Virus record (IMG/VR): IMGVR_UViG_2684622770_000004
DNA from: a virus
Taxonomy: Duplodnaviria > Heunggongvirae > Uroviricota > Caudoviricetes
DNA length: 4,422 nucleotides
Direction: 5' to 3' (one strand)
The notes under the pieces are model-generated. The model saw only the letters and a list, made by a program, of their open reading frames with translations. It ran no database searches and was not told the DNA's origin. This document shows, one piece after another, positions 3,641 through 4,422 of the stretch (positions are counted from its first letter, which is position 1; the number at the start of each line of letters is the position of its first letter). Made by a program: the position numbers and the translations under genes.

Positions 3641-4317
3641 TTACCCCCTGAAGCCTGGCGGGATCGCACTGTCCGGCAACGAGACGGTGTTAACCTGTCG
3701 GAGCAACGTCTCAGGCCGAACACCTTTCGGCGCGAACAGGCCCTGGTATTCATTGGCGATGCTGTGTCGAATCACCTGCTCAGGTGTAAAACCCTGCTGA
3801 CGGAATTTTTCCAGTTCCCGTATCGCCCCGTTAGCGCCCTGCTCCGTTCGAATCGGTTTTCGCAATGCCTGTCTGAACCGGACCCACTCATGCCAGAGTG
3901 TTTCCGGCAACCAATCGGGCAGCTCAATAGCCTCCGGCTCGAATTTTTTAGACGCTCGTTTTTGGCGAGGGGGAGATCAGTATTTAGATCTTCCTCTTCC
4001 TCTTCCTCTGGTAACGCTTTTTGATCCGTTTGTGTAACGCTGGCAGCGTTACCTTTTCGTTTCAGTTCGCGTATTTTTGTTACTCGCTCGTTTGTAACCG
4101 CCCGTTTTTTTTAGAGCTTTTTCCGTTATGACGTTCAAAGTTAGGTAGAGAAAGCCCTCCGTCATTTTCGACCAGCCATCCAACCTGAATTAACGCATCA
4201 GCAAAACCAGACATAAAAGTGATGCGATCTATTGCACTTTTTGTAACGCCGCGAGCGTTACAATCTGCATTACCGTCTATCATTTGTTGATCCGCCCATG
4301 CCCAGAAGCGAATAACC
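3641..4317 (-). pseudogene. phage replication initiator (YdaU/DUF1376-like N-domain with DnaT-like C-domain), disrupted by an IS insertion and two frameshifts
   Basis: Three minus-strand frames each carry part of one protein: an N-terminal segment VIRFWAWADQQ...GKSSKKNGRLQTSE (4317 down to 4083), a middle segment with an acidic EEEEEE linker, and a C-terminal segment ...LPDWLPETLWHEWVRFRQ...QGLFAPK ending at TAA 3641-3643. Adding one base in the T8 tract (4105-4112) and one in the T6 tract (3944-3949) restores a single ORF. The 5' end is cut at about 4317/4318 by the IS end. Confidence 0.7.
3989..4009. repeat. hexanucleotide microsatellite (TCTTCC)x3, encoding the EEEEEE linker on the minus strand
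   Basis: Direct tandem repeat tcttcc tcttcc tcttcc tct read from the sequence. Confidence 0.6.
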
Positions 4318-4422
4318 TGAGGTAGCCTGAGTTTAACGGACACTCCTTCCTGAAATAGAATGGCATCAGAAGGAGCTAATAATGAGCAGAAAAACCCAAC
4401 GTTACTCTAAAGAGTTCAAAGC
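4318..4422 (+). mobile_element. left end of an IS3-family insertion sequence (IS600-like), running off the window
   Basis: A terminal sequence beginning TGAGGTAGCC is followed by AAGGAG and an orfA start at 4382 encoding MSRKTQRYSKEFKA, which matches my recollection of the IS600 OrfA N-terminus. The left boundary is placed at the 5'-TG and is uncertain by a few bp. Confidence 0.7.
4382..4422 (+). CDS. IS3-family transposase OrfA (HTH subunit), N-terminal 13 codons only
   Basis: ATG at 4382 with AAGGAG 8 nt upstream; translation MSRKTQRYSKEFK, truncated by the window end. Confidence 0.75.
   Translation, partial: MSRKTQRYSKEFK

Follow-up and report, generated by a model that had tools for sequence, protein, structure and literature searches.

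The question raised by this locus is whether a broken replication-initiator gene in a lambdoid prophage is a genuine pseudogene or a product of sequencing error and, if genuine, in which order its lesions arose and why the gene was lost. The gene lies in a 4,422-nt stretch of viral DNA (IMG/VR record IMGVR_UViG_2684622770_000004; hereafter the window), which carries early-right genes of a lambdoid prophage on its minus strand. We found three lesions in the gene, two small frameshift mutations and one copy of the insertion sequence (IS) IS600. All three are present across independent assemblies, and the frameshifts came before the IS. It is likely, in our assessment, that the gene is a genuine pseudogene fixed in the Shigella sonnei lineage, that it descends from an initiator in the position of lambda O within a now defective lambdoid prophage, and that neutral decay is the main explanation for its loss.

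Three lesions in the initiator gene and their order

Ten long NCBI contigs (L003-L012), mostly complete chromosomes, were obtained by an exact-protein look-up with the product of the adjacent DnaC-like gene. The depositors name the proteins of the locus Shigella sonnei, and L008 (HE616528.1) is a sequence that we take to be S. sonnei 53G. Intact homologues of 789 nt, encoding 262 amino acids (aa), were recovered at 97-98% identity by megablast against 5,426 complete E. coli genomes, and the lesions were defined by base-level alignment with an intact E. coli prophage copy (L001:2898-3686). The features of the gene and of the IS that adjoins it are the following:

Initiator remnant: 3641-4317, minus strand; nt 105-789 of a 789-nt, 262-aa gene, with the stop codon at 3641-3643
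Frameshift 1: 4105-4112, minus strand; poly-A tract of A8 on the coding strand (T8 on the plus strand), +2 relative to A6
Hexamer repeat (GAGGAA)n: 3989-4009, minus strand; acidic linker stretch, n = 3 in the window
Frameshift 2: 3968-3975, minus strand; junction of a 10-bp deletion (TCCCCCTAAA) between TCCCCC(T) direct repeats, one of which is kept
DnaT-like C-terminal domain, coding sequence: 3641-3967, minus strand; itself undamaged, out of frame with everything upstream
Target-site duplication copy (GGT on the gene strand): 4315-4317, minus strand; its partner lies beyond the IS, outside the window
IS600 (IS3 family), left end: 4318-4422, plus strand; the window ends within the IS
IS600 terminal inverted repeat: from 4318, TGAGGTAGCCTGAG...
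IS600 inward promoter-like site: 4333-4361; the IS's own
IS600 orfA start: ATG at 4382, MSRKTQRYSKEFK...

The alignment revealed only three differences between the remnant and the intact gene over 686 nt: one substitution, which is synonymous (G88G, window 4158), and two indels. The remnant is therefore spread over three reading frames (4317-4113, about 4104-3975 and 3968-3641), as the initial annotation had described. That annotation had also placed the first break correctly, at the T8 tract; on the coding strand the tract is A6 in the intact E. coli and S. flexneri copies, and A9, which is in frame, in L008 and in the intact S. dysenteriae allele. The second break does lie just downstream of 3976, as had been proposed, but the T6 run at 3944-3949 to which it had been linked is unchanged from the intact gene, and the cause is the 10-bp deletion.

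Both small lesions fall in the disordered linker of the encoded protein. The hexamer repeat in the same linker varies in number, with three units in the window, L006, L009, L010 and L012, four in L005, six in L003 and L011, seven in L008 and eight in L007, and these changes keep the frame. The number of Glu residues is variable among intact E. coli alleles as well. Further linker alleles were seen in the protein entries P0043, P0002, P0141 and P0161; P0141 and P0161 carry independent -1 frameshifts in C5 runs, and a -1 shift in one or the other of these runs leads to truncated products of 218 aa and 146 aa. The linker is a mutational hotspot, since it combines slippage repeats with independent frameshifts in the same C5 runs. 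P0043 is an intact S. dysenteriae allele of 261 aa in which A9 adds one lysine, and A9 is therefore a viable allele. A9 may have been an intermediate, and a route from A9 to A8 (-1) is as plausible as one from A6 to A8 (+2). Both (GAGGAA)n and the A8/A9 tract are polymorphic within S. sonnei, and so they could confound or serve strain typing.

The upstream end of the remnant is set by IS600. The IS3-family boundary that had been proposed at 4317/4318 proved to be exact: homology to the intact gene ends at window 4318 in megablast, the 104 nt of window 4319-4422 match copies annotated 'IS3-like element IS600 family transposase' at 100% identity, and at the junctions of complete S. sonnei genomes the IS terminus (TGAGGTAGCC...) lies at 4318, adjoining the target at 4317. 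In these genomes we also located the other IS end (TGAGGTGTAC...), giving an element of 1263 bp (L003 8037-9299) with the termini TG...CA. Across the insertion, ...GGGAAGGT is followed by TGAGGTGTAC..., the 1263-bp IS600 runs to ...CTACCTCA, and the gene resumes with GGTTATTCGC...; the intact gene reads GGGAAGGTTATTCGC at this place. GGT, present once in intact genes, flanks the IS at either end in L003, L007 and L009-L012, so that the 3-bp duplication is complete.

The initial annotation had held that the N-terminus of the initiator was cut off, and the alignment bore this out, as the window lacks the first 35 codons (nt 1-104). The 5' part of 107 nt that was cut off, start codon included, was found directly beyond the IS in complete S. 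sonnei genomes. IS600 hits codon 36, in the predicted winged-helix domain, and is oriented opposite to the initiator gene; the products called in L003 and L011 carry the domains HTH_Tnp_1, HTH_21, rve and rve_3, which belong to the HTH (orfA) and DDE/rve (orfB) parts of the transposase. We also considered whether an outward promoter at the IS600 end might drive the remnant and the loader gene ydaV, and rejected this because a search of that end gave no minus-strand site and only the inward promoter-like one.

We then compared the lesions across loci. Eight of the nine S. sonnei loci (L003 and L005-L012) carry A8 together with the 10-bp deletion, and the ninth, L008, carries A9 together with the deletion; L004, the tenth locus, has an intact 262-aa gene with A6 and no deletion. 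The two lesions were found together in none of the 685 complete E. coli genomes that carry the region. An 87-aa open reading frame (ORF; window 4080-4343) begins in the IS600 end and terminates in the A8-shifted frame, and it therefore needs both the IS junction and A8; this ORF is on record from 492 contigs, named S. sonnei. The frame-disrupting differences from intact orthologues thus recur in independent assemblies. In L005 and L008 both frameshift lesions are present (with the A9 form in L008) in a gene without the IS, showing that IS600 came after the death of the gene.

Prophage decay of this kind is known, and these results add one more example, which hundreds of deposited genomes share. 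IS600 belongs to a set of five IS families that have expanded throughout Shigella, with recent activity especially high in S. sonnei, and pseudogenes made by IS and small mutations account for at least 5% of coding sequences in Shigella reference genomes (PMC7373316). Compared with the IS600 pseudogenes described there (Hawkey et al. 2020, PMC7373316), the locus shows the same IS identity, the same TG...CA termini and 3-bp duplication, the same S. sonnei host and the same combination of IS and small mutations, with no essential difference. It should be annotated as one pseudogene, and not as the two or three 'hypothetical proteins' of 87, 89 or 74 aa that appear in many S. sonnei records; beyond correct annotation its importance is small. 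As a worked example, it illustrates how cross-assembly comparison tells real frameshifts from homopolymer errors and how an IS600 insertion can be placed after point inactivation.

The intact loader and the cause of the loss

The adjacent gene had been described as intact and DnaC-like, and we confirmed both points:

DnaC-like loader gene (ydaV type, 248 aa): 2888-3634, minus strand; intact, Walker A motif GKPGTGKN present

Its product is 100% identical to that of L001 ydaV, from the intact E. coli prophage. The initial annotation had set this intact loader against the inactivated initiator, a contrast that turned out to be uninformative. The window differs from the intact prophages (L001 and L004) by five substitutions over 4122 aligned nt, none of them in ydaV, where about 0.9 would be expected by chance, and the remaining small genes are likewise all intact. 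Because the whole window is so little diverged, the intact loader is silent on selection. Its selective retention was rejected as unsupported, zero substitutions being what most of the window shows and the S. flexneri copy of the same loader being dead. The locus is thus also a worked example of an intact neighbour gene in a very young pseudogenised region that gives no evidence of selection.

The same prophage in S. flexneri (L014-L016, 5217-6747) carries different lesions. Its initiator has an 11-bp deletion (GGGCGCTAACG) at nt 591-601, between GGGCG repeats, and its loader has G111D and K114* in Walker A (GKPDTG*), which split it into ORFs of 113 aa and 108 aa. The replication module was knocked out independently in S. 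sonnei and in S. flexneri, and such parallel loss could seed a population-scale test of selective prophage disarming.

The linker DNA is rich in slippage substrates, namely the A6-9 run, (GAGGAA)n and the two TCCCCC(T) repeats. Under neutral decay, the explanation we favour, two events in it, probably slippage, destroyed the frame: the 10-bp deletion between the TCCCCC(T) repeats and the change of the poly-A length to A8. Later, in part of the S. sonnei population, IS600 entered codon 36 with duplication of GGT and severed the promoter-proximal 107 nt, so that 1.26 kb of oppositely oriented IS now stands between the early promoter and everything downstream; expression of the loader behind IS600 has presumably been lost. 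The loader itself would have stayed intact since the prophage is very young relative to the mutation rate, and selective retention is not needed. The loss as a whole would then have been neutral.

Several observations weigh against neutral decay as the whole account. Across 12 genes in S. sonnei and S. flexneri we counted five lineage-fixed small disabling mutations (in S. sonnei the -1 in ydaT, the initiator A-run and the initiator 10-bp deletion; in S. flexneri the initiator 11-bp deletion and ydaV K114*), and four of these lie in the initiator or the loader, two genes that jointly account for 29% of the compared coding length (post hoc binomial p about 0.03). This clustering hints at something beyond neutral decay. 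Homopolymer runs of six are also present in cI, cro, ydaT, ydaV, DUF977 and DUF1367, and the run of the initiator alone is changed in all S. sonnei. For the poly-A tract, the genomes are compatible both with A6 to A9 to A8 and with A6 to A8. The main alternative, that the first knock-out was selected and the later hits were neutral, seems to us possible at most as a minority account. A trapped prophage, if de-repressed, would fire its origin in place and cause 'replicative killing', and lineages without the initiator, or without initiator and loader in the case of S. flexneri, would have a survival advantage, excision being blocked by the truncated integrase and the IS-rearranged ends. An induced lambda prophage fragment that is trapped and cannot be excised kills within minutes, and in the survivors O or P is inactivated by insertions or deletions (PMC3640518). 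These RK- mutants of the trapped lambda prophage, from the Hayes laboratory, resemble the present locus in the inactivation of initiator or loader with the immunity genes intact; they differ in that they were selected in the laboratory under thermal induction, whereas selection is hypothetical here and the hotspots offer a neutral account (PMC3640518). Besides the clustering, selection draws support from independent knock-outs of the replication module in two Shigella lineages whose prophages are otherwise near-identical, from the two changes within four codons of Walker A in the S. flexneri loader (G111D and K114*), from the intact repressor and cro genes, with which an inducible switch may persist, and from the truncated integrase and IS-rearranged prophage ends of S. 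sonnei. However, the statistic is post hoc and built on five events, the initiator indels all lie at slippage hotspots of the disordered linker, which would be enough on their own to produce the clustering, and the first frameshift may predate the trapping of the prophage. Neutral decay is preferred because the initiator indels are all at hotspots, the events are few and the knock-out may have come before the trapping. That loss of the replication module in Shigella was positively selected once IS had trapped the prophage, since SOS induction would then fire the origin in place and make an intact initiator and loader lethal, with S. sonnei (initiator) and S. flexneri (initiator and the Walker A motif of the loader) disarmed independently, is accordingly a tentative and rather doubtful proposal; if it were true, the low-complexity linker would act as a slippage-prone 'fuse' that makes disarming frequent.

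Two further readings concern the frameshifts themselves, and both are very improbable. According to one, which the initial annotation had raised as an alternative, the frameshifts stem from faulty sequencing or assembly of a draft genome, and IS600 alone interrupts the gene. The scaffold is indeed draft-like, with a 102-N gap and contig ends inside IS copies, and one of the two breaks lies in a homopolymer. The second break, however, is a 10-bp deletion, eight independent chromosome loci of S. sonnei share both breaks in identical form, the diagnostic 87-aa ORF is on 492 contigs, and the window equals L003 base for base over 4320 nt save for the hexamer number. Recurrence of both frameshifts in every S. 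sonnei locus examined, and of the diagnostic ORF on the 492 contigs, means that they are mutations of the lineage, and the error explanation is effectively refuted. The other reading takes the poly-A tract (A8/A9) and the hexamer repeat as a phase-variable on/off switch for initiator expression. The tract does vary in S. sonnei (A8 in eight loci, A9 in 53G), the hexamer ranges from three to eight units, and the A9 product is in frame as far as the deletion. The 10-bp deletion is nevertheless in every S. sonnei copy, so that no tract length restores the DnaT-like C-terminal domain, and 53G yields only a truncated product of 224 aa. The start codon and promoter are also removed by the IS in most genomes, and a reverted deletion was found in none of the nine S. 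sonnei loci; we hold the odds of such a switch to be very slight.

Identity of the intact initiator and its relation to known systems

The intact protein gave a full-length match to PHROG 2509 'replication initiation protein' (E 1e-89) and matches to several other initiator and primosomal PHROGs. One homologue is named 'phage replication initiator YdaU family protein' by the Prokaryotic Genome Annotation Pipeline (PGAP), and 96%-identical copies in isolated Escherichia phages are annotated 'DNA replication protein O'. A Pfam search returned no family, neither Phage_rep_O nor DUF1376, and the N-terminal domain had no match in Pfam, NCBIfam and PDB sequence searches. Similarity to the DnaT C-terminal domain was found over residues 170-262 (phmmer, 2ru8, E 9.5e-5), with the shared tail NTVS.PDS.IPPGFRG; the C-terminal tail of the initiator (NTVSLPDSAIPPGFRG, window 3641-3700) differs very little from that of host DnaT (NTVSEPDSQIPPGFRG). 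An AlphaFold (AF2) model was built from 33 homologues, with a mean predicted local distance difference test (pLDDT) score of 67 overall and 75-90 in the domains. In this model residues 10-95 form a helix-turn-helix with a beta-hairpin wing, residues 97-160 are a disordered linker, and residues 176-225 make up a C-terminal domain of three helices. The 262-aa protein is thus predicted to consist of an N-terminal winged-helix domain, a disordered low-complexity linker and a DnaT-like C-terminal domain, the winged-helix assignment being generic and taken from the predicted fold only. The PHROG matches, the DnaT-like domain and a place in the operon between ydaT and the loader gene make 'replication initiator' a reasonable label. 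A literature search for ydaU and ydaV gave nothing on replication function in the library covered.

The initial annotation had called the gene ydaU-like, which holds for one part of the protein. The C-terminal 124 aa (residues 139-262) are 81% identical to YdaU of K-12, but the N-terminal 138 aa are not alignable and are unrelated to the DUF1376 domain of YdaU. Full-length orthology to YdaU was therefore ruled out, as the C-terminus alone matches and DUF1376 is absent. The comparison with the YdaU-YdaV pair of the K-12 Rac prophage otherwise shows the same order of ydaT, initiator and ydaV, with a loader that is 93% identical to YdaV; the initiator is a mosaic whose DNA-binding module is a different one and presumably origin-specific.

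The gene resembles lambda O in its position after cro and cII-analogue genes and directly before the helicase-loader gene, and in its two-domain layout, in which a flexible linker connects a putative DNA-binding domain at the N-terminus to the C-terminal domain. It differs in lacking a Phage_rep_O match, in the DnaT-like nature of its C-terminal domain and in its partner, which is DnaC-like and not lambda P. Ori-lambda sits within gene O, and palindromic repeats inside the gene were likewise found here:

Perfect 19-bp palindrome GTAACGC-N5-GCGTTAC: 4243-4261, in the initiator gene
Second perfect palindrome GTAACGC-N5-GCGTTAC: 4034-4052, with an extra half-site at 4011-4017

The pattern has two matches in the window and none in 200 shuffles, and the pseudogene has kept both copies intact. 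They are candidates for sites of initiator binding or for an origin.

The initiator-loader pair also mirrors the host dnaT-dnaC operon. The initiator differs from host DnaT in its N-terminal half and in its score of 16 bits on the DnaT model against a cutoff of 201. The loader scored 510 bits on NCBIfam PRK12377 (cutoff 389) and 306 bits on the DnaC equivalog model, under the cutoff of 357, and for that reason it is a phage paralogue and not the host gene DnaC itself; it also matches PHROG 50 and the Pfam families IstB_IS21 and Bac_DnaA.

A larger variant of the linker was noted in P0099 and about 45 similar E. coli and Salmonella entries of 374-380 aa. These hold an insert of ~114 aa at the place where S. 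sonnei has the 10-bp deletion, with a motif, GRIDIVV...D...ELD, that resembles PD-(D/E)XK nucleases, and the insert may represent a domain or mobile-element insertion.

The surrounding prophage

Downstream of the initiator remnant (3641-4317) and the DnaC-like gene (2888-3634), the minus strand of the window carries the following genes in order:

DUF977 gene: 2451-2873, minus strand
Small zinc-ribbon ORF: 2037-2450, minus strand
queH, broken by the N gap, then hokD, rem and a truncated DUF1367 gene: minus strand

The 102-N gap (1143-1244) corresponds to 259 bp in complete genomes (L003 12391-12649), and its length is thus arbitrary; in L003 this stretch holds the final 42 nt of queH together with the sequence upstream of hokD. 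The gene order cI-like, cro, ydaT, initiator and ydaV is shared by L001, L002 and L004. In the loci of the look-up the prophage adjoins modABC and is full of IS elements. The S. sonnei prophage beside modC has several copies of IS600 and of other IS, a truncated integrase and a frameshifted ydaT, its ends are IS-rearranged, and its repressor and cro genes are intact; the description of a decaying prophage in an IS-rich genome was therefore apt.

The frameshift in ydaT, a cII-analogue or 'toxin' gene just upstream of the initiator and outside the window (L003 7431-7852; L005 8709-9130; L008 8690-9111), is a 1-bp deletion at nt 39. It was seen in L003, L005, L008 and L012, which are all four of the S. 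sonnei loci compared, and the S. flexneri and E. coli copies are intact.

A second IS600 copy enters the window at its other end. Its right end occupies window 1-94, in the same orientation as the copy at 4318-4422, and cuts the DUF1367 gene (95-401) at nt 307. In L003 the flanks of this copy are AAT and GTT, without a target duplication, and its far side is joined to the truncated integrase next to modC, which indicates an IS-mediated rearrangement. With two IS600 ends in the same orientation, the window is a 4.2-kb segment between direct IS600 repeats.

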